From Eledone cirrhosa (lineage: Eukaryota): 64,000 nt of DNA. Position 1 is the stretch's first letter; each line of letters starts with the position of its first letter. The stretch spans positions 1 through 64,000 of the forward strand of contig CAXHJY010000593.1 in assembly GCA_964016885.1 (NCBI GenBank), written 5' to 3'. This document shows positions 805 through 62,781 of this stretch, in pieces. The notes below the pieces were generated by a model. The model worked only from the letters and a program-made list of their open reading frames with translations. It had not been told where the DNA came from and did not search any database. The position numbers were made by a program, and so were the translations under genes.

Positions 805-865
805 GTATGTATATATGTATATATATGTATATATATATATGTATATATATATATGTATATGTATG

Positions 866-898
<33 letters not shown>

Positions 899-1004
899 GC
901 ATATATATATATGCATATATATATATGCATATATATATATATGTATATATATATATGCATATATATATATGTATATATATATATGTATATATATATATGT
1001 ATAA

Positions 1005-1423
1005 ACAATTAAGTTAAAAATGTACATCCATATATGTATACTGAAATACTAGTATGCATATGAATACACACACGTATACATATGTAGATGTACCAAGTCT
1101 TTCACTGGTTACTTTACTGTGAGTATCCAGCTATTCTGTATGTAAACACACAGACAAACCGGTTTTTAGAGTCATACTGGATTTTGAGGAAACACCTTTC
1201 CTCTATTCTCCAGAAAGCCATACAAGGAATAATGAACTAGTTTCGTTGTTGTTACAACTCATCAGCAATATTTACCTATCTACCGGCCTTTCTGGAGAAT
1301 CGTAAAAGCACATATCGTTATATGCTTTTTCTATGAAAATTAGTAGTGGGCAGACTAATTTGCATAGAGTGTGAGTATGTACCGGTTCAACGGAGACGAT
1401 AAAAACAAATAACGAAACAAAAT
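1005..1423 (-). mobile_element. Solitary Penelope-like pseudo-LTR remnant carrying a hammerhead motif
   Basis: Non-coding island between TA arrays containing a minimal type-I hammerhead; the PLE assignment is inferred from the known PLE-hammerhead association. Confidence 0.55.
1228..1272 (-). ncRNA. Minimal type-I hammerhead ribozyme (canonical core)
   Basis: Minus strand AAUAUUG-CUGAUGA-GUUGU(AACA)ACAAC-GAAA-CUAG-UU/CAUUAUU: stem I 6 of 7 bp, stem II 5 bp, palindromic stem III ACUAGU, predicted cut between 1235 and 1234. Confidence 0.85.
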
Positions 1424-1443
1424 TATATGTATATATATATATG

Positions 1444-1490
<47 letters not shown>

Positions 1491-1629
1491 GTATATATGT
1501 ATATATATATATGTATATGTATATATATGTATATATGTATATATATATATGTATATATATATATATGTATATATATGTATATATATATATATGTATATAT
1601 ATGTATATATATATATATGTATATATATG

Positions 1630-1772
<143 letters not shown>

Positions 1773-1785
1773 GTATATATATATG

Positions 1786-1918
<133 letters not shown>

Positions 1919-1959
1919 GTATATATATATATATGTATATATATATGTATATATATATG

Positions 1960-2011
<52 letters not shown>

Positions 2012-2060
2012 CATATATATATACATATATATATACATATATATATATATACATATATAT

Positions 2061-2482
2061 ACCCCTTAGCCCCGGGAGAGATGACCCCTTAGCCTTTGTC
2101 AAGGCAGAATTCTAGGAGAAGGAAAACTCTGATATAACACCTGCAACCCTGATGGTATCCAATGATGTTGACTTGTTCTTCTTTTTGGTAAATATCATCT
2201 TGGTTAAGAGAGTGGGACTGGCTTTGTGCAGTGCCTTTGCTCACTATAAAAGCTTCACGGCACAGGCATTGCTTTATATCTGGAGATCTCTCTGCATTTG
2301 TCGTCACATGGTACCATGGGCCCAGCACTATGTGTCAATAATTGTCACAAGTGTAGTGTTTGTACCAGAGCTTTCAAGTCGCTGGCTGGACTAAAAAGTC
2401 ACACTCGTTCAGCGCATCAGTAGGGGTTCTCCTACATGGATATAAAGTAGTGGCCGTACTCGAAAACGAGTTGGCAGCCACC
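2061..2482 (+). mobile_element. 5'-truncated copy of the 605-bp non-coding TA-inserted retroposon
   Basis: Near-identical to the 3' two-thirds of 17199-17803 and 34071-34677; same 3' end GCAGCCACC followed by (AT)n. Confidence 0.85.
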
Positions 2483-3980: not shown

Positions 3981-4197
3981 GAAGGCGTGTGGCTGAGTGG
4001 TTAGAGAATTGTATTTTTTATCGTAAGGTTGTGAGTTCGATTCCTGGACCAGGCGATGCGTTATGTCCTTGAGCAAGACACTTTATTTCACGTTGCTCCT
4101 TCTACCTGGAGTTGCGACCGACAGATAGTATTAGCAATTGGAAAGACCAACGGAAACATTGTTCCCTCGGTCCGATTTGACAAAAAAGTCGATCGTT

Positions 4198-6664: not shown

Positions 6665-6782
6665 GTAGAGGGTGATTTCCAGGTATCCCATGACTAGGTT
6701 GGCATAAGTGGGGGCTGTTTTCGTTCCCATAGCGGTCCCAGATTTCTGCCTGTAGGGTTTGTTATTGAAAACGAAGTAATTG

Positions 6783-7945
6783 CAACCTAGTCATGGGATA
6801 CCTGGAAATCACCCTCTACACAAAAGTCCTAAACAAATTTGGAAACACCCTCCACTTACACATTGAAAGGAACTGGAAGCGATATCTAGATGACTGCTTC
6901 ATCCTTTGGCACGAAAACATCGAAAAACTTAAAGAATTTCACACCCTTATAAATGGGCTCAAAAACAAATATTAACTTCACGATGGAATACAGCCATCAA
7001 CAACTCCCCTTCCTCGGCATCCTCATTAAGATCCATAACAAAAAAATAGAAACAGACATATACTACAATCCCACAGACTCCAAGCAATATCTCCCCTTCA
7101 ACTCTTGCCACCCTAGACACGTTAAAATTAATATTCCCTACAACTTAGCCAAGAGAATCTGTACTATAGTCTCCAATAAAAACATCTGCTACTTACGGCT
7201 ACAAGAACTAAAGGACACACTCATAGGCAGGGACTACCCTGCATCACTAATTGACAATGGAATCCAACGTGCCCTAAAACTCAATACCCAGGACCTTAGA
7301 CACCCTAAAGTAAATCAACCAAAACTAAAAGCTCTTCCATACATCTCCACACACAACCCCCTCAACAATGAGGCCTTTGACACCATCCTCCAGAACATCC
7401 CTGTATTGAAAAAGGACCATAGAATGAACCAAATTCTACGAACATATGATATCATAAAGAGCAAAAGACAATCCAAGTCAATGAAAAACATCTTAACACA
7501 TGCCAAAGTACTGCCAACCACAACAACGAAACCCACAGTAAAAAAATGCGATAGACCCAACTGTGGCATTTGCATCAACCTAATAGAGGGTTCGGAATTC
7601 TATTTCAAAGATGGACAACGTTTTATAGTAAAACACAATTTCACATGTGCATCGGAAAATCTAATATATGTATTAACTTGTTCAGGTTGTCGAGAACAAT
7701 ACATAGGCCAGACCAAAAACAGCCTCCGCCAACGCATGACTGTCCATAGATCCCAAATCAAAATACGGGAATACAGGAAAATACCACTGAGTGAACACAT
7801 TGATACCTGTGCCGCCCAAAATCATCCCAACTTCAGAATCTTTCCCCTCTACAAATTTAAAGATAATGCCACCCACACCCAGCGCATCAGCAAGGAATCT
7901 TACTTCATTAACAAATACGGACCCCGTCTAAACACTTCTCCCTAA
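6783..7945 (+). pseudogene. PLE reverse transcriptase-GIY-YIG endonuclease, truncated, one frameshift near 6960-6975
   Basis: ORFs 6793-6975 (WKRYLDDCFILW) and 6953-7945 (IYVLTCSGCREQYIGQT...RQRMTVH...ESYFINKYGPRLN). Confidence 0.9.
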
Positions 7946-8620
7946 GACGAACCCACGACATACACACGTCAACATACATACCTACATCAGCACACATCTC
8001 TACCCACATATAAACACAACGACATACATAAACACACATGCTCTATGGTGCAACACAAAAAGATATATGTGCATATATATATGTGTGTACATGTGTATAT
8101 ATATATATATATAGTGAATATATGTGTGTGTGTGTATATATATATAGTGAATATCATTTAGCACCTTTTATTGTTAAGATTTTTGATGTTCTATTAAAAG
8201 AACCGATTTTACTGAAAAAATCGAATAATGTACACCATTTTACCAGGGGGAAAAAAATACTGGTCCCCCCCCCCCCACACACACACACATATATACACAC
8301 ACACATACACACGCGTACATCAACATACAAAGAGACTTATATATACACACCACACACACACGCACTTCTCCGTATAAGACAAAAGCTGAAAAATATCTTT
8401 TGACATTCTAAAATACCCCCCATTGCTTTCAGACACATTCTTACTGACCATCCCTGCCACCACGAATTACTCTGCTATACACACACACACACACACTTAT
8501 CTTAATAGCCATTTGACACACATCGCTGCTAACCATTATCACAACATCGAACACCTTACTACTACTACTACTACTACACACACACACACACATATTTTTT
8601 GTGAAAGAGTCATTTCTCAA

Positions 8621-8838
8621 TCTTGGCGCAAAACCAATTTTTTATTCACATGACCTCCACCGACCAATCAAAATTGTTTTGACCACAAGAATTTTTGCTG
8701 GAGCCACTTTTTTAACATAAAAACAGTCTTGGCGCTAAATCAATTTTTTACATTCACATGACCTCTACCGACCAATCAAAATTGTTTTGACCACAAGAAT
8801 TTTTGCAAATTGGAGCCACTTTCTTAACATAAAAACAG
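8621..8838 (+). promoter_or_regulatory. Two ~110-bp tandem units (8621-8726, 8727-8838) with promoter-like motifs in the PLE pseudo-LTR
   Basis: Each unit has TTGGCGC (E2F-like), CACATGAC (E-box), GACCAATCA (CCAAT box) and CATAAAA (TATA-like). The duplication is seen directly; function is inferred. Confidence 0.45.
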
Positions 8839-8899
8839 GTAGAATTCCCAAAACTAATCAGATCAGAGCAAACAGCACGGACACTCTATCTCAAAATTA

Positions 8900-8936
8900 T
8901 TTTTGAAAAGCATTTAGAAATGCGCAACCGGTAAAA
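8900..8936 (+). ncRNA. Hammerhead-like motif, U3-A8 core variant (A13C in this copy)
   Basis: UUU-UUGAAAA-GCAUU(UAGA)AAUGC-GCAA-CCGG-UA/AAA; homologous to the 36300-36337 motif, with covarying stems. Confidence 0.6.
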
Positions 8937-9106
8937 ACTTAAAACCACAACTGAATACTAACCCATACAATCACTAATACTCTTTTATTCCTAATTAAAC
9001 CATTTTTCAACTGTGAACAATTTGTCAGCATTTTCTATTCCGTTTACTATTCCGTTTACCAATATATATATATATATATGTATATATATATGTATATATA
9101 TATGTG

Positions 9107-9334: not shown

Positions 9335-10847
9335 CACGTGGAGGGGCAGACCGATGCCCTCCGATAGCGTCGTCGGACGCTGGACGGAGGGCCCGGTGAA
9401 GTTGCTCGGGGTCTGGTTCGGACCGGACCTCCAGGTGGAGAAAAACTGGGCGGAGGTTACGAACAGGGTGTTTGCACTGACCCAGAAGTGGGCCAGTTGC
9501 AAACTATCCCTGAAAGGTCGGGCGGAAGTGGCGAACACCTACATAGCGTCCGTCATCTACTACCGCCTGACCGTAGTGCCCTGCCCAAGGGAAACCCTCA
9601 CCAAGATGGAGCGCGCGCTCTTCCAATTCCTTTGGAAGAGGCGGGCTCCTATGGTGAGGAGATCCATCTGCTGTCAACACCCTTCGAAAGGAGGGCTGGG
9701 GATGCCGTGGCTAATGATGCGTAAACACGCATTAAGGCTACGGCACCTCTACGTATTCCTCACCGGACAACCGGTGTGGGCCTCGTTTGTGAGACGAACC
9801 TTTCCCAGACTCGTCTCACTCACCGAGCTGCAATCCTGGGTCAAGCAAAGACCGAGAAAACTGGGCGCCTGGCACACTGAGTGTGCCCAGGCGCTCACCG
9901 CCCTCTGGCAGGCGGATCCGGTTATCAGTGGAGACTCCACCGCAACATTCTATAGAGGGCTGGTACGCAGCAGGTGCGACGACGCCCTCGGAGAAGCCCT
10001 AGACATGGAGGAGGACGAACTGGCCAGCCTGTTCGGTAGGACATTCAGCCCAGGACCTATGGACAACTTCCAGAAGTCCCTGGCCTGGCAGTGCTACCGA
10101 GGGGCTTTACCCGTTCGAGAAAGGCTCTACAGACACGGGCGCCCGGGTCGGGACCCCGCCAAAAAGATCTGTCCCAGATGCGTGTGCGACGAGGAAACCG
10201 TTGCACACGCATTGGTACACTGCTCGGGCGTAGCCGATCTGTGGGGCTATGTCGAACAACTGCTGTCAAGGGTGGGACCGATCCGGTTGACCACCGAGTC
10301 TATTGTAATGATCAAGCCGCCTCCCCCCTTCAAAGATGAAGCAGAGGCGGTGTTTCTGTGCGTAATAGCCATGGCGAAAGAGGTTGTATGGTCGACGCGT
10401 CTGAAAGGACTGAGGTCAGGCACCTTTCTCTCTGGCCAACAACTGGTCCGTTTCTTCCGATATCATTTCGGAAGAAGGATCAGGATGGAGAGAGAGGTGC
10501 TGCACCCCAGTCGTTTTTATGAAAGATGGGTGAAAGTGGCGAGAATGGCCCGTGTGAATGGGCCTTCACTCTACATCAGACTATAGGTGAGGAAGATGAA
10601 AGACCAAGGGAGCACCCCTTCTCTGTGCTCCTGAGGAGAAGGGTTGCACACTTTTTTCGGGGGTGTGTGCGACCCCCCAAGGCGCCTCCTCTCTATTGAG
10701 GATTTTGTTAAAAATTTTATTTTTTGTTATATCTTATTTTATTTTTATATTTTGTTATTGCCTCCTCCTTATTGAGGACGCCTTTTTGTGTAAACTCCCC
10801 CCTTTGTACTTGTCCCACTTTTGATGCCCTAGTGGCAAATAAAAGAA
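9335..10847 (+). mobile_element. 5'-truncated Tx1-like (L1 clade) LINE: ORF2 C-terminal half with CCHC zinc knuckle plus 3'UTR
   Basis: Open frame to 10586: [28 protein letters not shown]...[10 protein letters not shown]; 3' end AATAAAAGAA; flanked by ATATATATG on both sides. Confidence 0.9.
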
Positions 10848-13531: not shown

Positions 13532-16500
13532 ATCATCATCATCATCATCATCATCATCAACGTTTAACGTCCGTGTTCCACGCTTGCATGGGTTTGGACG
13601 GGGGTAGTCCCACTTGAGGCAAGAGTGATTGTCTTGCTCGCATAGGACTGTCTGGCAGGTTTTCTACAGTTGGATGCCCTTCCTAACACCAACCACATTT
13701 ACAGTGTGGGTCTGGGAGGTTTTTACCGTGTTGCCTACACGGCCACATTACAGCGTGGACTGTGTGTTTTTTTGTCGTGACACCTACACGATCTCATTTG
13801 TTTCGGCCTCGATGGCGCGGCACCAACATAACTTTACATAGAACGGGGTGGTGTGGATCGGGTGGGGGTGGTGGGACGGGGTGTATTTTGTTAGAGATGC
13901 CTACTGGCTGGAGTAGGTTTTACTATATATTTAGGTAAGGCGGGTCTTCTCTGTTACTGAGTACCGCCAAAGGTCTCGGTCCAGTGACATTGTCTTGGAG
14001 AGGTGTAAGTGTGTGATGTCGGAGTTTATCAGCTCGTCCCAGGTTTTTCTAGGTCTGCCTATTCCGTGACTACCGTCTATCTTTATTGCCCTGCACTTTG
14101 TTATACAGCTATCGACTTTCATGCGCATCACGTGTCCATACCAACGTAGCCTTCTCTCGAGTAAACAACATCTGATCCCTCTTATCTCTAATTTATTCCT
14201 TAGTTCGTTTATGCTTTGCCGTTCACGTATATTACTGTTACACATCCAGCGGAGCATGCAAGCTTCGTTCCTCTCTAGTCTGCGTATATCCTCTGCACAC
14301 AATGCCCAGGTCTCACTGCCATGCAGCATTGCTGTTCGTATGCAGGCATCGTACAACCTGCCTTTCATTTTTAGTGAGAACCCTTTAGCAGCTAATAGTG
14401 GTATAAGCTCTCTGAACTTTTTCCAACCAGTTCTGACTCTAGCTACAGTACTTTCAGAGCACCCTCCCCCACTGCTGATTTTATCGCCCAGGTAACGGAA
14501 GCTGTCCACTATTTCTATAGAACCCTCTGCGCAATTGAAAGAGCTAGTAGTTTGTGGGCACTTGCTGCTACTTATTGCACCAGAGCACCGGCCACATGTA
14601 AAATCTATGTTCTTAGTTAGCTTACCTGTGATCCCACTACATCTTTTATGCACCCATACTTTGCATTTAGGACATAAAATGGAGTTTCTACCTACGCCTT
14701 TCCTACACACCGAGCACGACCATTTCCCAGAAGGGACCGCCGCCTTGTTTTCTTTCCTACAAACTAGTACTTTGGTCTTAGCCAGGTTAATTTTAAGTCC
14801 TTTTGACTCTAGGCCGTGCTTCCATGTTTGGAATTTCTTCTCTAGCTCGGCCATTGATTCCGCTATGAGTGTCAGGTCGTCTGCGTATAGGAGTTCCCAT
14901 GGGCAGCCTGTCTTGAACTCCTCTGTTATAGCCTGAAGGGCAATAATAAATAGTAGTGGACTGAGAACAGAGCCCTGATGGACGCCGACTTTTACGCTAA
15001 ACTCTTCACTATATTCGTTGTTAATTCTAACCTTGCTGACTGTTTCTTTATACATGGCTTGTATAGCCCTCACAAGCCATTCGTCAACGCCTAGTTTTCT
15101 AAGAGCCCACCAGATAATGGAGCGGGGGACTCTGTCGAAGGCTTTCTCCAAGTCGACAAAAGCTAAGTAGAGGGGTTTACCTTTAGCTAGGTACTTCTCC
15201 TGTAGTTGTCGTACTATGAAAAGAGCGTCTGTGGTACTTTTGCCTGACACAAACCCGAACTGCATTTCATCTAGGTCAATTCTCTCTCTGATTAGTTGCG
15301 CTATTACTCTTTCCGTGACCTTCATGACCTGGTCGATTAATTTAATGCCTCTATAGTTACTCCTATCTAGGGCGTCTCCTTTACCCTTATAACAGTTAAC
15401 GATGATGCTGCTATGCCAGTCCTTCGGAACAACCCCGTTCTGTACGACTTGGTTAACTATGCGGGTGACCATGGTGTGTCCCACCGTGCCAGATGCCTTC
15501 AGCATCTCAGCAACTATTTCCGAAGGCCCAGCCGCCTTACCAGTCTTCATATCCTTGATTGCCTTACTTATTATACTCCCCTCGACTAACACTGCTGGTC
15601 CCTCTATTGGGTCGATATGGGGGAGACTGCCTTTCTCCCAATTATTCTCCTCATTTAGAAGCCTTTCATAGTGACACTTCCAAGCTACCTTCTTATCAGC
15701 GTCGGTGATGGCAAGTGTGCCATCGTCGTTTAGTACACACTTCTCCCCGACAATATCACGGTTTTCCTTGACGCATTGCCTAGCAATCCTGAACACCTCA
15801 CGTTTTTGGTCATCGCGTTGTAGAACATGCTTGAACTTTCTTTCCTCAGCTTCCCTTCTTGCTAAGTACACTTGTCTCCTAGCTTCCCTCCTGGCCACTT
15901 GATAGTCCTCTCTACTTCCCCCATCCCGCCATACTTTCCAAGCCTGCTTTTTGGCCTTAATTGACCCCTCCACCTTACTGTTCCACCACCATGTTACTCT
16001 CCTCCTGCCTACAGGCCTGCTCCAGCCACAGACCTCGTCTGTCGCCAACAGCAGGTTTGCTTTCAGAAATTCCCACTCTCCCTCTATATTGTCCGACTCT
16101 AAATGTTCTTCCTTACTGTCGAAAGCATCAAGTAATATGCTTTGAAATTTATTCCTGGCTGTGGGGTCCTTTAGCTTCCATATTTTCCTCCTGAGGATAG
16201 TCCTCTTCTGTTGTCGAGTACGTCTCGTCCTGACTATGAGGTCGCTAATTATCAGTCTATGTTGGGAGGTGCATTCTTCATGGGGGAGGGATTTAGTGTT
16301 AACAACAGACACTCTGTCACGTCTTCTGGTAAGGATATAATCTACCTGGCTTGTGTGTTCCCCGGATCTATAGGTGATCAGGTGATTGTCACGTTTTTTG
16401 AAGTTAGTGTTACAGATAGTTAGGTTATTTGCATCACAGAATTCCAGGATTCTGGAGCCTTCCTCATTTCTAGTACCAAACCCATAGCCTCCATGGATTT

Positions 16501-16920
16501 CGTCGTAGCCGTCACAATGTTGTCCAACGTGACCATTTAGGTCGCCTGCGATAATTATATAGTCACTGTCGGATATTTGGGAGGTAGTTAGCATCAGTGT
16601 CTCATAGAATCTGTCTTTTATAGTGCCGGGCAGTCCGGATTGGGGTGCGTACGCAGATATTACTGTCACCGTAGTTCTATTGAGGACAAGTCGTATTTTA
16701 ATTATTCTGTCGTTCACTCTATTTACGTCTATTATCTTATCTGCCCACTTTTCTGCTACCATGATTCCTACTCCACCCAGCCCATCGTCGTTTCCCACCC
16801 AGAAAAGCTTATAACAACGTTTTTTACCCTCAATGAACCTAGCAGACCCACCCCTCCACCTGGTCTCTTGAATACAACAAACATCGACCTCCTTACGTTC
16901 AAGCATTTCTACAACCTCGT

Positions 16921-16921
<1 letters not shown>
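13532..16921 (-). mobile_element. RTE-clade LINE family A, nearly complete, truncated inside the APE N-terminus
   Basis: (TGA)n tail at 13532-13558, ~370-bp 3'UTR, long intact ORF. Confidence 0.95.
13931..16921 (-). CDS. RTE ORF: APE endonuclease, reverse transcriptase and PHD-like C4HC3 finger (no start codon within the element)
   Basis: [73 protein letters not shown]; no stops over ~996 codons. Confidence 0.93.
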
Positions 16922-16984
<63 letters not shown>

Positions 16985-16992
16985 TGTATATG

Positions 16993-17026
<34 letters not shown>

Positions 17027-17034
17027 TGTATATG

Positions 17035-17068
<34 letters not shown>

Positions 17069-17079
17069 TATAGTATATG

Positions 17080-17188
<109 letters not shown>

Positions 17189-17198
17189 GTATATATAT

Positions 17199-17803
17199 GT
17201 CAGGTCACCAGTTGGTGCTACTGGTAACATGTATCCCAGTACAACCTGTCTCATGGTCGGGTCGTTGGCGACTAAACTGGCAACCCCACCAAGGTTTCTT
17301 GGTGAGGAGGGTGACTTTGGACATCCTGCAGGACTAAAAACAAAACCTGTCAAAGGGCAAAGGAGCTCTTAAGAGTCAATGGCCATCCAAAATCACCGGG
17401 AGAGATGACCCCTTAGCCTTTATCAAGGCAGAATTCTAGAAGGAAAACTCTGATATAACACCTGCAACCCTGATGGTATCCAATGATGTTGACTTGTTCT
17501 TCTTTTTGGTAAATATCATCTTGGTTAAGAGAGTGGGACTGGCTTTGTGCAATGCCTTTGCTCACTATAAAAGCTTCACGGCACAGGCATTGCTTTATAT
17601 CTGGAGATCTCTCTGCACTTGTCATCACATGGTACCATGGGCCCAGCACCGTGTGTCAATAATTGTCACAGGTGTAGTGTTTGTACCAGAGTTTTCAAGT
17701 CGCTGGCTGGACTAAAAAGTCACACTCGTTCAGCGCATCGGTAGGGGTTCTCCTACATGGATATAGAGTAGTGGCCGTACTCGAAAACGAGTTGGCAGCC
17801 ACC
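17199..17803 (+). mobile_element. 605-bp non-coding retroposon-like element (full-length copy)
   Basis: Same termini (GTCAGGTCACC...GCAGCCACC) as 34071-34677; TA arrays on both sides; RTE-5'UTR-like motif (TCTAGGAGAAGGAAAACTCTGA in the other two copies, TCTAGAAGGAAAACTCTGA here); 3' stem-loop. Confidence 0.85.
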
Positions 17804-25114: not shown

Positions 25115-27785
25115 CATCATCATCATCACCGTTTTACGTCCGTTCTTCCACGCTAGCATGGGTTAGACGGGTTGTCCTGTTGTGGGCAGTGTCTGGTCGG
25201 CTGACCATGCCTTGCTCATACAGGAACTGATCTGGCTTGATTTCTACAGCTGGATGCCCTTCCTAACACCAACCTCATTTACAGTGAGTGCTGGGTGCTT
25301 TTTCGTGGCGCCTACACGTCCACTTTACAGTGTGGGCTGGGTGCTTTTTTGCCGTGGCACCTCCACGACCACCTTGCGGTGGGAGGAATGGGGGCATATT
25401 GTTTATATGCTTCAGCATGTACCCATGGGAGGTCGGGTACCCTGTATTACTGCGTGACGCCAGAAGTCAACGGTCGTGTGTCATTGACTTTGAGAGGTGT
25501 AGTTGGGTAAGGTCGGCTTTTATCACCTCATCCCAAGTCATCTTGGGTCTCCCCACTCCGCGGTTTCCATCAACTTCCTAGTGCTCTGCACCTTTTTATG
25601 CAGCTGTCATCCTTCATACGCATCACATGTCCACACCAGCGTAACCGCCTCTCCTGCACGCAGCATTTGATTCCTCTTATGCTCAGTCTCTCTCTCAATT
25701 CCTTTATGCTTTGTCGTTCACGTATATTACTGTTACACATCCATTGGAGCATGCAGGCTTCGTTTCTCTCTAATCTACGTAAGTCTTCCACCTTCAGCGC
25801 CCAGGTCTCACTACCATGCAACATCGCTGTTCGGATACACGCATCGTACAGTCTGCTTTTCATTCTGAGGGAGAAGCCTTTTGCAGCTAGCAGTGGTAGT
25901 AGTTCCCTAAACTTCTTCCATCCCGTTCTTACCCTAGTTATTGTACTTTCTGAGCACCCACCTCCGTTGCTAATTCGGTCACCTAGGTAGCAGAAGCTGT
26001 CTACTGTTTCTACAGGGCCCTCCCAGAGATTGGTGGTACTTGTTTCCTGTGGCTGTTTGCTTGCTGTTTCAGCACAGCTGCTGCATGTGAATCCTACATT
26101 CTTAATTAAGCTTCCTGAGATCCGCTACATCTCTTGTGTACCCATTGTTTGCATTTGGGGCAGAGAATGGAGTTCCTACCTACACCTTTCCTACATACTG
26201 AGCAAGGCCATTTCCCTGAGGGGATCTGGGTTCTGTTTTCTCGTCTACTTACAAGGACCTTAGTCTTTGCCATGTTGACTTTGAGGCCCTTTCTCTCTAG
26301 TCCCTGCTTCCAGGTTTGGAATTTATTCTCTAGTTCTACCATAGATTCAGCTATGAGTGCGAGGTCATCAGCATACAGGAGTTCCCATGGGCATCCGGTC
26401 TTAAACTCCTCCGTTATTGCCTGCAGGACTATGATGAACAGGAGAGGGCTAAGAACAGAGCCCTGGTGGACCCCAACCTGTACGCTAAATTCCTCGCTAT
26501 ACTCATTGCTAATCCTAACTTTGCTGACTGCTCCCCTATACATGGCTTGTACCGCTTTCACAAGCCATTCATCTACTCCTAGTTTTCTAAAAGCCCACCA
26601 GATTACGGCACGTGGAACTCTGTCAAAGGCTTTCTCAAGGTCGACAAATGCCAAGTAGAGTGGCTTACTTTTAGCTAGGTACTTTTCCTGTAATTGCCTC
26701 ACAAGGAAGAGGGCATCAGTGGTGCCTTTCCCTGGTACAAACCCAAATTGCATCTCGTCTATATTCACCCAGTCCCTAATCAGCTGTGCTATAACTCTTT
26801 CTGTTACTTTCATGACCTGGTCCATCAACTTTATACCTCTATAGTTTCCTCTATCTAGTGCATCGCCTTTACCTTTGTAGCAGTTGACAATGATGCTACT
26901 GCACCAATCTTTTGGTATAGCCCCTTCTAGTATTACCTGGTTAACGATACGTGTGGTTATAGTGTGACCTACAGACCCAGATGCCTTCAGCATCTCGGCA
27001 GCTATACCCGATGGACTGGTTGCCTTCTCTATCTTCATATCTCTGATTGCCTTACTTACTACGCTGCCGCTGATTTGTACTGCTGGTCCCTCTATAGGGT
27101 CTACGTGGGGTAGGGTCTCTTCTTCCCATGCATTCTCCTCATTTAGTAATCTATCATAATGACTCTTCCATGCATCTTTCTTCTCAGCACTTGTGAGGGC
27201 AAGCTCACCTTTATCATTCCGGATACACTTCTCTCCAATGACATCACAACTATCTCTGACACACTGCCTCGCAATCTTGAATACCTCCTGTTTCTGGTCC
27301 TCACGTTGTAAAACATGCTTGAATTTTCTATCCTCTGCTTCCCTCCTAGCTAAGTATACTTGTCGCCTAGCTTCCCTCTTGGTCTCTATGTAATGTACCC
27401 TGCTCCCCCCGTTCTTCCATTCTTTCCATGCCTGTCTCTTGGCCTTGACTGCTTCATCTACCTTATTGTTCCACCACCAAGTCACTCTCCTCCTGCTTGA
27501 GGTCTTACTCCAGCCACAAACCTCATCCGTCGCCTCTAGTAAGTTATTTTTTAGGAACTCCCAGTTCTCTTCTACGTTAAATGTCTCTATCTGTTCTTCT
27601 TTACTGTCGTAGGCGTTGAGTAAAATATCTTTAAATCTGTTACTGGTTGTGGGGACTTTCAGCTTCCAGATCTTTCTTCTCCAGGTTGGCCTCTGTTTCC
27701 GGGTTCGTCTAGTTCTGACCGTGAGGTCGCTGACAACTAAGCTATGTTGGGATGTACATTCCTCACTAGGGAAGGCTTTTGTGTT
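25115..27785 (-). mobile_element. RTE family C, 5'-truncated, with frameshifts
   Basis: ORFs 26106-27785 (RT, LLYADD, start of the PHD) and 25570-25863; (TGA)n tail at 25115. Confidence 0.92.
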
Positions 27786-28142: not shown

Positions 28143-28447
28143 GGAGGCACATGGCTTAGTGGTTAGAGCATTGGCCTTCCAATCGAAAGGTTGTGAGTTC
28201 AATTCTCAGACTGGGTGATGTGTTGTTTCCTTGAGCAAGGCACTTTATTTCACATTGCTCCAGTTTACTCAGCTGTAGAAATAAGGTCGTGGGGGTGCCA
28301 CGGCAAAAAAGCACCCAGCACTCACTGTAAATGAGGTTGGTGTTAGGAAGGGCATCCAGCTGTAGAAATCAAGCCAGAATCAGTTCCCGTCCCACCCTTG
28401 CAAGCAGGGAAAAGTGGACGTAAAATGAAATGATGATGATGATGATG

Positions 28448-29222: not shown

Positions 29223-29704
29223 TATATGTATACATATATATATGTATACATATATATATGTATATATATATATATGTATACATATGTATATGTATATATA
29301 TATATATATGTATATATGTATATATAGGTATATATATATATATATAGGTATATATATGTATATATAGGTATATATATGTATATAGGTATATATATGTATA
29401 TATATATATATAGGTATATATGTGTATATATGTATATATAGGTATATATATGTATATATATATATATATAGGTATATATATGTATATATAGGTATATATA
29501 TGTATATATGTATATATAGGTATATATATGTATATAGGTATATATATGTATATATATATATATAGGTATATATATGTATATATGTATATATAGGTATATA
29601 TATGTATATATATATAGGTATATATATGTATATATATATAGGTATATATATGTATATATATATAGGTATATATATGTATATATATATATATAGGTATATA
29701 TATG

Positions 29705-29737
<33 letters not shown>

Positions 29738-29777
29738 GTATATATATATAAAAATAGATATATGTATATATATATAT

Positions 29778-32700
29778 TCCTCTTTTTTAGCCATAATGAA
29801 TCTGGCAAAAGAACTGGAAAAAAACATTCGAGCTATCACCCAGCACCACCCTCCACTATCACCCCACTGCACAAACTCCCATTGCTGCCATTAACAAACA
29901 AACAAATTAACAACACACCAAAACAATTAAAACCATCCACTCTCGCCTCTACATTTTTGCTTAACGCCCAAGGCATCAGCCCTTCCACCAATACTCAAAA
30001 ATGGAAGATCAAATTCCTGGAGGACTGGATTGATGTCCATCCAAACCACATCCCTTTCTTCGTCCTCACTGAAACCCATCTCAGTAACCTCCACTTGGAA
30101 GCCGAGGTGAAAGTGAAAAATTTCAAAGCCATCCGTGCTGATCGCGCTGGCAGAAGAAAGGGCGGAACTGCCATTTATGTCCATAATTCTTTCTCAACAG
30201 AGGCTATGAACATATTCACTAATGGATACTGTGAGGCAGTCACTGTATTCAGTCAAACCAACAACCTATTAGTAGTTGGGCTCTATAGGCCACCCCAAAC
30301 GCCTGTACCATGCTTCAAGGAATGCCTCAACAGCATAAAGTGTTTCATCCAAGAGTGTCACCCTGACAACATCTTAATGATGGGGGACTTCAACCTCCCC
30401 GGAGTTGACTGGTCCACAAACACCCTGCCACCAGGTTCTTCTGCCTCAACCTCTGACAGGGAAGCTGTGGAATCACTTCTTGACTTCATGGATGATTTCT
30501 TCCTATCCCAACTAGTGCTCGAACCAACGAGGTGCCACAAAAACGTCCTAGACTTAATTTTCAGCAATCACACTGACAATATCCACAATATTGCAGTGGA
30601 GAAAACTCTACTCTCTGATCATGACATGGTTCTCTGTGATCTGAGATTCCACCGTCCAATATACAAACCCAATGTCATCTCTCCTGTCCATCCGTTTGAC
30701 GCTATGGATTTCCACAATGCAAACTGGGAAGCGATCAGTCATGATCTTGCACATGTCGACTGGTCCTTCACGCACACTCATACACCCACTAACATCAAAA
30801 AGTCCTGGCAGACATTTGTGGACACTGTTACAAACATATGTGCTAAACACACCCCATTAAGAACTATAAACAAATCTAAGAGCAGAATCCCTAGAAATAG
30901 AAAAACGCTCATCAGAAAAATTAAGAGAACGAACAAAAAAATCAACAAGCTGAAATACTGTCAGCAGCAACACATCAACTTGACTGCCATTTCATCACTA
31001 GAGATTAAAAAACATAACCTCCAAAACAACATAATGTCCCTCATCAACAATCAGAGAAGAGCTGAAGAGGCCTGGGCCATTGAGAAGATCAAACTCAATC
31101 CCAAAGTGTTCTTTTCATTTGCAAAAAAACACAAAATCACTGGCTCTACTGTTGGCCCTCTAATTGATGAAAATGGCACTCTTCAAGACAATGCTAAAAC
31201 CATGGGTGAGATACTGCAGAAACAATACTGCTCTGTTTTCAGCAATCCTTATATGGCCGATCTGGGCTGTATCGGCGATGTTACTCCCCATTACACCTTA
31301 TCGGACATAACGTTTGGCGCCCCTGATGTCTTGGCGGCAATAAAGGAAATCAAGCATAATTCAGCAGTAGGTCCCGATAGGTTCCCTGCTTGTGTCCTGA
31401 AGGCGTGTCAACACCAACTTGCTTCTCCTCTTGCCAATCTGTGGCGGAACTCACTGGATGCTGGATATGTGCCAGAAAACCTTCTATCCCAGTCTGTTGT
31501 CCCAGTTTTCAAAAAGGGAAACAAATCCCTTGCCGTGAATTACCGTCCAATCTCACTCACCTCTCATATCATTAAGGTATTTGAGCGAGTGGTGAGATCG
31601 CGAATGACCCACTTCCTTGAGAGTAACAATATGCTGAACTCCAACCAGCATGGATTCCGTAATGGAAGGGATTGCCTGACGCAACTACTGCATCACTTTG
31701 ATGACATTTTGAGAGCCTTGGGAGAGGGTTCCAACACTGATGTTATCTACCTTGATTTCAGCAAGGCCTTTGACAGGGTTGATCATAACATTCTACTGAG
31801 AAAGCTGTCCAATATTGGTGTCACTGGAAAGCTGCTGCAGTGGATCAAGAGCTTCCTGTCAAACAGAACCCAACATGTTGTAGTTGAGGGAGTCAAATCA
31901 AGCCCAGCCAAAGTCAGTAGTGGAGTCCCACAAGGCACTGTGTTGGGCCCACTTCTCTTCATCATCTATATTAATGACATCACTGACATCATCAAACACA
32001 GCAACATTAAAATTTTCGCTGATGATTCCAAGCTCCAAAAGGTCATCAATGGCGTGGATGACCGGATAAGCCTTCAGTCAGACCTACTGGCTGTTACCCA
32101 ATGGGCAGAAAAGAACAACATGTTACTGAACGAGGACAAATTCGAACTGATCCACTTTGGAAAAGAGGATGCTCTGAAACTCCCGTACTCCCTTCCCTCC
32201 GGGGAAACTCTCGTGGCATCTAACAACATCAGAGACTTGGGAGTAACCGTGGACAGCAACATAAGCTGGACCACGCATATAAGCAGCAAAGTTGACATGG
32301 CCCGCAGAATGTGTTCCTGGATCCTCAGAACCTTCCAGTCGAGAGATTCCCGCACCATTATCCTTCTCTTCTCTACTTTCGCCCGACCACACCTTGAATA
32401 CTGTTGTCCACTGTGGTCTCCCCACACGAAACAAAGTATCATGAAACTTGAAGCTCCTCAAAGGGCAATCACGAAAAAGATAGATGGCATGTCAGACCTT
32501 GACTACTGGGGTCGATTGGAAAACCTGAAACTTTACTCACTCCAACGTCGCCGTGAGCGTTATATTATCTGCATGATGTGGAAAATGTTCCATCATCACT
32601 GCCCAAATGATGTTGGCATCGCCTTCAAGATACACCCAAGGCTTGGGCCCCGTGCTATCCGTCCCATTCAAAAATCTAAATCGCAACTCATAACAACAAT

Positions 32701-32902
32701 ACGGCACAATTATTTCACCTCAATCGGCCCTGCTCTCTTCAACATCACACCAGGACACGTCAAAACAGAAACTGACCACTCAAAATTCAAGAAGTCTTTG
32801 GACAAATTCCTCCAAGTAATCCCGGACAAACCACCCACACCCGGATATGTCTCCGCAAACAGTAATTCTCTTCTCGAATGGGCCATGGTGCCCAAATCCT
32901 GA
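29778..32902 (+). CDS. CR1-type ORF2: APE endonuclease plus reverse transcriptase
   Basis: LNAQG, LTETHL, GGTAIYV, LYRPP, GDFNLP, SDH; [62 protein letters not shown]; no stops. Confidence 0.93.
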
Positions 32903-34070: not shown

Positions 34071-34677
34071 GTCAGGTCACCAGTTGGTGCTACTGGTAAC
34101 ATGTATCCCAGTACAACCTGTCTCATGGTCGGGTCGTTGGCGACTAAACTGGCAACCCCACCAAGGTTTCTTGGTGAGGAGGGTGACTTTGGACATCCTG
34201 CAGGACTAAAAACAAAACCTGTCAAAGGGCAAGGGAGCTCTTAAGAGTCAATAGCCATCCAAAATCACCGGGAGAGATGACCCCTTAGCCTTTGTCAAGG
34301 CAGAATTCTAGGAGAAGGAAAACTCTGATATAACACCTGCAATCCTGATGGTATCCAATGATGTTGACCTGTTCTTCTTTTTGGTAAATATCATCTTGGT
34401 TAAGAGAGTGGGACTGGCTTTGTGCAGTGCCTTTGCTCACTATAAAAGCTTCACAGCACAGGCATTGCTTTATATCTGGAGATCTCTCTACACTTGTCGT
34501 CACATGGTACCAAAGGCCCAACACTATGTGTCAATAATTGTCACAGGTGTAGTGTTTGTACCAGAGTTTTCAAGTCGCTGGCTGGACTAAAAGTCACACT
34601 TGTTTAGCGCATCGGTAGGGGTTCTCCTACATGGATATAAAGTAGTGGCCGTACTCGAAAACGAGTTGGCAGCCACC
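34071..34677 (+). mobile_element. 605-bp non-coding element, third copy (full length)
   Basis: Colinear and nearly identical to 17199-17803. Confidence 0.85.
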
Positions 34678-34824: not shown

Positions 34825-35050
34825 TTTTTGAGGAACGATCGACTTTGTTGTCAAATCGGACCGAGGGAACAATGTTTCCGTTGGTCTTTCCAATTGCTAA
34901 TACTATCTATCGGTCGCAACTCCAGGTAGAAGGAGCAACGTGAAATAAAGTGTCTTGCTCAAGGACATAACGCATCGCCTGGTCCAGGAATCGAACTCAC
35001 AACCTTACGATTGCGAATACAATTCTCTAACCACTCAGCCACACGCCTTC
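34825..35050 (-). mobile_element. tRNA-CORE SINE (same family as 3981-4212)
   Basis: Near-identical reverse complement; ends GATCGTTCCTC followed by A5. Confidence 0.85.
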
Positions 35051-59039: not shown

Positions 59040-62000
59040 TCATCATAATCATCATCATCATCATCTTCGTTTAACGTCCATTTTCCACGCTAGCATGGGT
59101 TAGGCGGGAGTTGTCCCAATTTGAGTTAAGGTTGGTCGGGTGACCGTGCCTCGCTCATATAGGACTATCTGGCAGGTTTTCTATGGCTGGATGCCCTTCC
59201 TAACACCAACCACATTTACAGTGTGGAACTGGGAACTTTTTACCGTGTTACCTACATGGCCAGATTACAGCGTGGACTGTGTTTTTTTTCTCGTGACACC
59301 TACACAATCTCGATCTCGGTCTCATTTATTTGGACTGGATGTTGTGGTACCAACTTTACAGAGAGAGGGTGGTGTTGGTGGGAGTGGGAGGATAGGGTAG
59401 GGGTAGTGGATTCATCATCATCATCACCGTTTTACGTCCATTCTTCCACGCTAGCATGGGTTTTGTGGTGTATATTTGTTTAAGAGGTGCCTACTAACTG
59501 TAGGTTTCGCTTTGTATATAGGCAAGGCGGGTCTTCTGTATTACTGCATAGCGCCAAAGATCTCGCTCCAGTGACATTGTCTTAGAGAGGTGCAAGTGTG
59601 TAAGGTCGGAATTTATTAGATCATCCCAGGTTTTTCTGGGTCTACCTACTCCGTAACTACCATCAATTTTGATTGCCCTGCATTTTTTTATACAGCTGTC
59701 GTCTTTCATGCGCATCACGTGGCCATACCAACGTAGTCTTCTCTCAAGTAAACAGCATCTGATCCCTCTTATTCATAATTTCTCACTTAGTTCATTTATG
59801 CTTTGCCAATCACGTATATTACTATTACACATCCAACGGAGCATGCATGCTTCGTTCCTTTCCAGTCTGCGCAGGTCCTCTGCACATAATGTCCATGTCT
59901 CACTGCCATGTAGCATTGCTGTTCGTATACAAGCATCATACAATCTGCCTTTCATTTTTAGAGAGAAACCTTTTGTGGCCAACAGTGGTATAAGCTCTCT
60001 GAACATTTTCTATCCCGTTCTGACTCTGGCTACTGTACTTTCAGAGCACCCTCCACCACTGCTGATTTTGTCACCCAGGTAACGGAAAGTGTCTACTATT
60101 TCTATAGAACCATCTGGGCAATAGAAGGAGCTAGTATCCTGTGGACACTACTTATTGCACCAGAGCATCAGCCTCATATCAAGTCTACATTCTTAGATAG
60201 TTTACCTGTGATCCCACTACATCTTTTATGTACCCATACTTTGCATTTGGGACATAAAATGGAATTTCTGCCTACTCCTTTCCTACACACTGAGCATGGC
60301 CATTTCCCTGAGGACATCTCTTGCCCTATTTTCCTTTCTAGAAACTAGAACTTTAGTCTTAGACAAGTTAACTTTAAGGCCTTTTGATTCTAGGCCATGC
60401 TTCCATGTTTGGAATTTTTTCTCAAGTTCAGCTATGAGCGTTAGATCATCTGCATATAGGAGTTCCCATGAGCAGCCAGTCTTGAACTCCTCTGTTATAG
60501 CCTGAAGGGCAATAATAAATAGGAGGGGGCTAAGGACAGAGCCTTGATGAACACCAACTTTTACACTAAATTCTTCACAATATTCATTGTTAATTCTAAC
60601 CTTACTGACTGTTTCATTATACATAGCTTGTATAGCTCTCAAGCCATTCCTCTACACCTAGTTTTCTAAGAGCCCACCAGATAATGGAGCGGGGGACTCT
60701 CTCCAGGCTTTCTCCAGGTCTACAAAAGCTAAGTAGAGGGGTTTACTTTTACTTGTAGTTGTCGTACAAGGAAAAGAGCGTCTGTGGTACTTTTACCTGA
60801 CACAAACCCTAACTGCATTTCATCTAGATCAATTCGCTCTCTGATTAGTTGCGCTATAACTCTTTCTGTGACCTTCATGACCTGGTCAACTAACTTAATG
60901 CCTCTATAGTTTCCCCTATCTAGAGCATCCCCTTTACCCTTGTAGCAGTTAATGATGATGCTGCTACGCCAGTCTTTTGGTATGACCCCATTCTGTATTA
61001 CTTGGTTAACTATACGGGTGACCGTAGTGTATCCCACCATACCAGATGCCTTCAACATCTCAGCAACTATCTCCGAAGGCCCAGCTGCCTTGCCTGTCTT
61101 CATATCTTTGATTGCCTTACTTATTATACTACCTTTAACTTGCACCGCTGGTCCTTCTATTGGATCGATTTGGGGCAGACTATCTTTTTCCCATTTATTC
61201 TCCTCATTTAATAGTCTCTCATAGCGACACTTCCGGGCTATCTTCTTATCAGTATCAGTGAGCGCAAGTACACCGTTATCATTACGGACACACTTCTCCC
61301 CGACAATATCACGGTTTTCCTTGACACATTGTCTAACAATCCTGAACACCTCACGTTTTTGGCCCTGACGTTGTAGAACATGCTTGAACTTTCTATCCTC
61401 TGCTACCCTTTTTGCAAGGTACACTTGTCTCCTAGCTTCTCTCCTGGCCACTTGATAGTGCTCTCTACTTCCCCCATCCTGCCATACTTTCCAAGCCTGC
61501 TTTTTGGCCTTGGTTGTCTCTTCCACCTTACTGTTCCACCACCAAGTTACTCTCCTCCTGCCAACAGGTCTGCTCCAGCCACAGACTTCATCCGTTGCTT
61601 TCAGCAGGTTCACTTTCAAGAATTGCCACTGTTCCTCTATATCGCATGTCTCTAATTGCTCTTCCTTATTGTCAAAGGCATCAAGTAATAAGCTTTTAAA
61701 TTTGTCACTGGCTATGGGGTCCTTCAACTTCCATATTCTTCTCATCAAGGTAGGCCTCTTCTGTCGTCGAGTACGTCTATTCCTGACTATGAGGTCACTA
61801 ACTACTAGGCTATGTTGGGAGGTGCATTCTTCATGGGGGAGGGATTTAGTGTTTACAACAGACACTTTGTCCCGTCTTCTAGTAAGGATATAATCTATCT
61901 GGCTGGCGTGTTCCCCTGATCTATAGGTGATCAAGTGGTTTTCACATTTTTTGAAGTTTGTGTTACAGATAGTTAGGCTATTTGCGTCACAGAATTCCAG

Positions 62001-62423
62001 GATTCTGAAGCCCTCCTCATTTCTATTTCCAACCCCATAGCCTCCATGGATTCCATCATAGCCATCACTATGTTGTCCAACGGGACCGTTTAGATCGCCA
62101 GCAATAATTAAGTAGTTGCTGTCGGTTATTTGGGAGGTAGTCTGCATTAGCATCTCATAGAACCTGTCCTTTATAACGTCAGGTAGACCAGATTGGGGTG
62201 CATAAGCAGATATTATTGTCACAGTAGTTCTATTTAGAACTAGTCTTAATTTAATTATTCTGTCATTCACTCTATTTACGTCAATTACCTTATCTACCCA
62301 TTTTTCAGCTAACATAATTCCTACACCACCCTGTCCGTTGTCATTTCCCACCCAGAAAAGTTTATAGCATCGTTTTTTACCCACGATGAATCTGGCAGAC
62401 CCTCCTCTCCACCTAGTCTCTTG
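59040..62423 (-). mobile_element. Older RTE family A copy with frameshifts
   Basis: ORFs 60729-62384, 60283-60642, 59773-60006 and 59494-59718 are colinear with the 13931 ORF; (TGA)n tail; a family C tail is nested at ~59411-59460. Confidence 0.92.
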
Positions 62424-62781
62424 ATTTATTAATCAGAAATTGAAGAAATGGTACAGAGAATTTAGAGATAGCCAGAATTCAAATCTAGCTGTGAAAAATT
62501 ATACTTCGTTTTCTTGTATAAAAGAAAGATCCCTGTAACATATTGGTAGTTGATCTAATTATATTGTTCTTAATATTTGGATCATGGGAACATCAGCTAT
62601 TTTAGTGAAGTGCTACTGGGATTGATTTAATCAATGTCACTGTCTCCTGAAAAGTATGACTTTGTGTCAAAGTTAGATATTATTATAATTACTATTACTT
62701 TGTCACACAGTGTAAATGGAAAATGCAGTGAAGTATTTAGTCATCTGTAAAATCACAACAAGGACCTCAGACAGATAATCA

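Follow-up and report, generated by a model that had tools for sequence, protein, structure and literature searches.

A type I hammerhead motif in a solo copy of a repeat that is likely a non-LTR retrozyme

The locus and its hammerhead motif

The window analysed here, a stretch of 64 kb of DNA, carries LINE ORFs of one family with endonuclease, RT and PHD finger, a second ORF of 1066 amino acids with endonuclease and RT, and a third that corresponds to a C-terminal part (Table 1). TA-type microsatellite makes up 22.5% of the window, occupying 38% of the first 37 kb and 0.9% thereafter, with a sharp change at about 37000. A repeat of about 605 bp is present in full at 17201-17802 and 34073-34676 and in part at 2072-2481, at 96.5-96.8% identity and each time between TA microsatellites, and another repeat family (28150-28213, 3982-4197 and 34834-35049) has a tRNA-like head (Rfam tRNA, 30 bits) and is probably a tRNA-derived SINE. 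A 5'-truncated Penelope-like element (6668-9061) begins at a TA microsatellite; its ORF (6953-7945) encodes a CX4CxxC linker and a GIY-YIG domain, and an inverted RT fragment lies on the minus strand at 6668-6790, with a perfect 34-bp inverted repeat at 6668-6701 and 6783-6816. The Penelope-like protein has 101 matches, and its named relatives come from Argonauta (55% and 52%), Crassostrea (49%) and Octopus vulgaris (60% over half the length). The source animal is likely a marine invertebrate, probably an octopod, a range that a LINE protein search left as wide. Downstream of the Penelope-like ORF, at 8618-8838, about 106 bp are duplicated in tandem with 90% identity.

At a distance of 5.5 kb from the Penelope-like element, an island of about 420 bp lies between TA microsatellites. 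The original prediction had described it as free of ORFs, which is borne out, as every ORF of at least 100 amino acids that touches it begins in, or extends into, TA microsatellite. Both reading of the sequence and a descriptor scan of the 64-kb window find a complete type I hammerhead on its minus strand, at 1272-1228. The core conforms to CUGANGA / GAAA / NUH with G10.1-C11.1 and A15.1-U16.1, and the helices have canonical dimensions: about 6 bp in helix I, about 4 bp in helix II, and 1-2 bp closed by a palindromic loop of 2-4 nt in helix III, with one U·U in helix I of this copy. The intact core, the 5-bp stem II, the palindrome and the GUU triplet that had been proposed all lie where they were placed on the minus strand, and the proposed cut agrees with hammerhead numbering. 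The 13-bp inverted repeat, suggested as a distal extension of stem I, is perfect and closes a long distal helix I. The UA in loop 1 and the A-rich 6-nt loop 2, which has one variant among copies, align to positions of the Rfam family Hammerhead_HH9 (RF02275), and the loop 1 bulge would be a candidate tertiary partner of loop 2.

Two parts of the earlier description need revision. The motif had been called minimal, a term that does not apply in the sense of PMC4209133: the motif has a helix III, its 6-bp helix I carries a bulge in loop 1, and helix II is not preceded by an additional base. By that account, the minimal form in Penelope-like pseudo-LTRs has a helix II of 7-8 bp, a helix I of 4-5 bp, an extra base between 9 and 10.1, and no helix III; the motif shares with that form the type I topology, the helix III palindrome and a predicted dimer mechanism, and differs in displaying none of the helix features given there. 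Judged by its sequence, it is a canonical metazoan type I hammerhead and not the minimal Penelope type. It had also been called fully canonical, which overlooks a U·U mismatch (1268/1232) that is absent from all other contigs covering 1232 in the four runs described below.

Table 1. Positions of the repeat unit, the hammerhead parts and the LINE ORFs in the window
Feature	Position	Strand	Basis or remark
Interrupted TA microsatellite beside the unit, possibly with part of linker	806-1003		
Unique part of repeat unit (non-LTR retrozyme-like monomer), 34.5% GC	1004-1423	minus	run contigs, fold
Long AT-rich hairpin of unit	1022-1093		repeat scan, fold
Side hairpin of unit	1104-1131	minus	1110/1125 pairs as A-U in the window copy, as G-C in the majority of the others
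13-bp inverted repeat, 3' arm of distal helix I	1205-1217	minus reading	fold, repeat scan
Helix I, 3' strand	1234-1228	minus	contains U·U mismatch 1268/1232, private to window copy
Predicted scissile bond after GUU	1235/1234	minus	hammerhead numbering
Cleavage triplet GUU	1237-1235	minus	sequence
Helix III palindrome ACUAGU	1241-1236	minus	self-complementary
Core G12 A13 A14 (GAA)	1244-1242	minus	sequence; no variant row among run contigs
Helix II GUUGU / ACAAC, 5 bp, loop AACA	1258-1254 / 1249-1245	minus	sequence, fold
Helix II, alternative: 4 bp with 6-nt loop UAACAA	1258-1245	minus	HH9 alignment
Core CUGAUGA (C3-A9)	1265-1259	minus	sequence; no variant row among run contigs
Helix I, 5' strand	1272-1266	minus	HH9 alignment, descriptor scan
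Loop 1 bulge (UA) and closing GG	1276-1273, facing UCC 1228-1226	minus	UA aligns to HH9 loop 1
13-bp inverted repeat, 5' arm of distal helix I	1288-1300	minus reading	fold, repeat scan; wobble variants at 1290, 1294
Hairpin of unit, 15-bp arms	1330-1368		repeat scan, fold
Interrupted TA microsatellite beside the unit, possibly with part of linker	1424-2061		
LINE ORF	13931-17368	minus	
LINE ORFs	25434-27785, 59467-62424		
LINE ORFs	29666-32902, 9337-10586	plus	

The motif is the sole descriptor match in the 64 kb: eight core-like strings occur in the window and this one alone is accompanied by the helices, and scans by core string, descriptor and repeat find no second hammerhead there. In trinucleotide-preserving shuffles of the 49.3 kb of non-microsatellite sequence, 13 of 2066 contain any match, one of 2066 a palindromic helix III, and one of 2066 a helix II of at least 5 bp together with a helix I of at least 6 pairs out of 7, figures that are somewhat flattering given that the descriptor was composed after the motif was known. 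No ribozyme in the window reaches an Rfam gathering threshold, and the best Rfam match is RF02275 at 30.1 bits (E 1.1e-5; gathering score 52). The segment 1195-1310 folds with a z of -4.6, and none of 200 shuffles is as stable.

A many-copy repeat unit and its variants

Words of the unit are present in 20 of the 24 public runs listed, none of which is recorded as RNA. Contigs of four of the 24 (X1, X4, X6 and X14) were aligned to 1004-1423 at 80% likeness, the others, with their small shares, being left aside. Run X1, possibly the source of the window itself, contributes 774 contigs, which together span each of the 30 bins of the island with no step at any internal boundary; 231 of them are at 99% identity or more, 322 at 95-99%, 185 at 90-95% and 36 under 90%, and the summed depth runs from 1.7e5 to 5.3e5, which is not to be read as a copy number. 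Since variant contigs in such numbers extend over the whole island, the island is one repeat unit, and the 774 contigs indicate many copies, although a part of the variety may be transcript variants if X1 is RNA. The share of aligned X1 sequence that continues into unlike sequence is zero.

The arrangement of the units emerges from a joint seen in X6 and X14, runs of two studies, where a contig passes from 1379-1423 through 46 further letters to 1004 and onward. This puts the length of the head-to-tail unit at about 466 nt, made up of the 420-bp island and a 46-letter linker, and the X14 contig covers both joint and hammerhead. The joint contigs number one per run at low depth (17 and 5) in two of the four runs, with none in X1 or X4, and because the molecule type of the runs is off record the joint fits a DNA tandem and an RNA circle alike. 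The window copy itself is solo, as self-comparison reveals no second copy or array of the unit within the 64 kb. Near-identical letters recur in runs with four different organism labels, and 13 of 370 letters differ between the window copy and the contig of X14; the near-identical, low-depth matches of X6 and X14 may be carry-over or dietary DNA and are not taken as cross-species conservation.

Thirty places of the unit vary among the run contigs. Five lie inside 1226-1276, namely a U to C change at H17, one position in loop 2, and 1257, 1246 and 1232, and all are tolerated or private to the window copy. The H17 change turns GUU into GUC at 1235 in some copies, accounting for 9% of X1 depth and occurring in X4 as well. 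In helix II, a compensatory change converts U-A to A-U at 1257/1246, both letters standing at depth 30.8 in X4, which we read as one contig, while their shares in X1 differ (43% and 18%). At 1232, all of the depth in four of four runs carries the other letter, which completes helix I to seven of seven pairs in the other copies and leaves the U·U mismatch private to the window copy. A further compensatory change, A-U to G-C at 1110/1125, falls in the side hairpin outside the ribozyme and has both letters in a single X14 contig.

Elsewhere in the unit, the changes at 1037, 1186, 1277, 1290, 1294 and 1359 turn into G·U wobbles when read on the minus strand but into mismatches when read on the plus strand, with 1290 and 1294 lying in the 13-bp inverted repeat. 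Pair-keeping changes amount to 9 of 18 on the minus strand versus 3 of 13 on the plus strand, which is suggestive at most (P 0.16), and 8 of 10 uncompensated changes favour the minus strand (P 0.055); four uncompensated changes (1149, 1163, 1178 and 1378) break minus-strand pairs. The 14 core bases are free of variants, at a level that is not significant either alone (P 0.35) or when 29 nt are taken together (P 0.11). A change at 1221 was considered as a plain loss of a pair and rejected, as the window copy pairs 1221 with 1282 (p 0.71), a register shift. A-to-I editing as a source of the variants was likewise set aside, the excess of A>G changes (8 vs 4) not being significant (P 0.39). The variant mix of X4 at 1149-1186 is unlike that of X1 (at 1163, 30% vs 2.6% of depth), and may reflect another mix of subfamilies or a related species.

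Predicted folding and cleavage

The unit is non-coding, below 50% GC and highly self-paired: its minus strand is predicted to fold at -127.7 kcal/mol (z -8.1) and its plus strand at -110.8 kcal/mol (z -7.6). Within one molecule, ACUAGU can form a single pair, which leaves a palindromic tetraloop, or a second pair as well, which leaves a loop of 2 nt. Between two copies it is predicted to form a 6-bp duplex of -4.8 kcal/mol, a value for the duplex scored alone, since the inter-copy helix III is a pseudoknot for the folding program; free cofolding of two copies did not yield a double hammerhead. The core is not formed in the minimum-energy fold of the window copy, where its start is predicted to pair with the palindrome instead (p 0.77-0.99). 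The dimer-ready state has a weight of 0.0014, which rises to 0.019 with the majority letter at 1232, and the pairing of helix I rises with the same letter from p 0-0.28 to p 0.63-0.94, energies that omit tertiary contacts and thus rank the states only roughly.

The nearest possible partner copy would lie more than 62 kb upstream or past the 1 kb visible downstream. With no partner in the window and the core blocked in the predicted fold, the window copy alone is predicted to cleave little unless the second half comes from another transcript. The original prediction had named this motif the best candidate for an active ribozyme in the window. As the sole hammerhead there it keeps that place, but its private mismatch and predicted sequestered core suggest that the description suits the family better than this copy. 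For the same reason a cleavage test on the monomer could fail without refuting the family, because helix III closes poorly in one molecule and the core is predicted to pair with the palindrome. A clean-looking single motif can thus turn out to be a worn solo copy.

A likely retrozyme and its alternatives

We consider it likely that the many-copy repeat is a non-LTR retrozyme and that the motif sits in one of its monomers, solo and slightly worn. Units of non-LTR retrozymes are non-coding, low in GC and highly self-paired (PMC7229834), and solo monomers are normal in such families (bioRxiv 10.64898/2026.07.22.740005). At the level of sequence, the repeat offers a head-to-tail arrangement with a hammerhead, many copies, and non-coding, GC-poor and self-paired units, and a Penelope-like element occurs in the same genome. 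Like the animal non-LTR retrozymes described in these two sources, the repeat combines units a few hundred bases long in head-to-tail order with a single canonical type I hammerhead and with dispersed monomers. It differs from the invertebrate retrozymes described in PMC7229834 in its larger unit, in a helix III weaker than the coral and mussel types, and in lying between TA microsatellites. The same source gives repeats of 150-450 bp and RNAs of 170-400 nt, against about 466 nt here, a length inside the 51-972 bp that the preprint gives for vertebrates.

On the model of the family literature, tandem arrays would be transcribed by read-through, and the array RNA would be cut at each hammerhead, with a double hammerhead assembled from two copies that pair their ACUAGU palindromes. 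The resulting monomers, with 5'-OH and cyclic phosphate ends, would be circularised, likely by a host ligase, and the circles could be reverse-transcribed by a Penelope-like enzyme and re-inserted as monomers or multimers (PMC7229834, PMC7761336). Transcription, cleavage, circles and Penelope-like mobilisation are thus drawn by analogy, and the finding leaves the model of how retrozymes work unchanged. The Penelope-like element of the window carries a CX4CxxC linker, a feature that PMC8557442 hypothetically connects with the targeting of microsatellites by Neptune elements. It attests that such enzymes occur in the genome and nothing more, because it has no sequence likeness to the unit and a relaxed scan of 6668-9061, 3' region included, found no credible hammerhead in it.

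The predicted dependence on dimers has its closest described parallel in amphibians. The newt satellite hammerhead and HHR_Amex1 of the axolotl, to which the motif is likened by description only, have a one-pair helix III with a palindromic tetraloop, and HHR_Amex1 cleaves to 6% as a monomer and far better as a dimer (PMC7229834); the present motif differs in coming from an invertebrate and in having a dimer dependence that is predicted. Most invertebrate retrozyme hammerheads described in PMC7229834 cut as monomers, which counts against the dimer-dependent reading, and in the preprint cited above (bioRxiv 10.64898/2026.07.22.740005) one of nine tested dimers cleaved and eight did not. If the retrozyme reading holds, non-LTR retrozymes extend to a probable cephalopod, and a predicted dimer-dependent hammerhead, a type until now tied to amphibians, would have an invertebrate case with natural variants at hand. 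No report of a cephalopod retrozyme came up in the mostly open-access literature searched, where supplements, including those on further invertebrate retrozymes of PMC7229834, may name one; the sole cephalopod mention found is a genome-wide count of 235 hammerhead loci in giant squid (PMC6962438).

The alternative that survives best, though we hold it unlikely, is a hammerhead-bearing satellite, or a detached pseudo-LTR of an autonomous Penelope-like element, that spreads by unequal crossover or through truncated Penelope insertions and does not itself go through an RNA circle. According to the same preprint (bioRxiv 10.64898/2026.07.22.740005), pseudo-LTRs are relatives of retrozymes, and crossover may expand arrays; hammerhead variants with a small palindromic helix III are described in Penelope-like elements of flies, rotifers, shrimps and mosquitoes (PMC4209133); and the RNA circle is a conjectural step of the retrozyme reading. 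Against this stand the zero share of X1 sequence that leaves the unit for unlike sequence and the two joint contigs, both of which lead past 1423 to the unit start and not to an ORF. No RT or GIY-YIG ORF adjoins the unit in the window or in the aligned run contigs, which are short enough to miss rare ORF-linked copies. The canonical layout of helix I and loop 1 is moreover that of retrozymes, the minimal Penelope-like motifs described in PMC4209133 being devoid of helix III and tertiary contacts, and structure is also kept outside the ribozyme, at 1110/1125.

A more elaborate version of the retrozyme reading, to which we give somewhat less credence still, would have an invertebrate retrozyme, dimer-locked as in amphibians, whose circle of about 466 nt carries its own TA tract as an integration seam. 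Every dispersed copy would open in this tract and be inserted at (TA)n by a Penelope endonuclease of the Neptune type; in a host rich in editing, the rod-like circle might in addition undergo A-to-I editing, with the edits written back to DNA. The window copy is bounded by TA microsatellites on both sides, precisely at the position of the 46-letter linker, and two X1 contigs likewise continue into (AT)n there. The idea is weakened by the abundance of microsatellite, which fills over a third of the first 37 kb anyway, and by an A>G excess short of significance; if true, it would mean that the microsatellites filling the genome are targeted by the circle and seeded by it as well.

That the motif is instead a domesticated hammerhead at a single locus, processing a host transcript as the intronic HH9 of amniotes might suggest, seems very improbable. 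HH9 is the best Rfam match, and the motif shares with it the core, a 6-bp helix I, a 4-bp helix II with a 6-nt A-rich loop and the UA in loop 1, while near-identical letters stand under four organism labels. The motif differs in having no 3-bp helix III with a 5-nt loop and in being many-copy, as opposed to one conserved locus; hundreds of variant contigs and the head-to-tail joint speak against domestication, as do the score far under gathering, the deviation of the window copy itself in helix I and the chance that the low-depth runs contain carry-over or dietary DNA. A chance descriptor match inside an unrelated structured repeat, which the missing gathering-level match, a minimum-energy fold devoid of the core and a plus strand nearly as stable against shuffles might recommend, deserves scarcely any credit in view of the single shuffle in 2066, the Rfam E value, the compensatory change in helix II, the GUU/GUC exchange at H17 and the perfect helix I of other copies.

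Pattern scans returned no exact 24-nt match in GTDB or IMG/VR, and the looser core patterns found four metagenome and five viral loci, none of the nine with the full unit. One of these nine (L001) resembles the motif, across 38 nt only. Hammerhead-like cores with the same ACUAGU palindrome occur at 2126-2163 of this unrelated metagenome contig and at 2001-2030 of a viral contig (L005).
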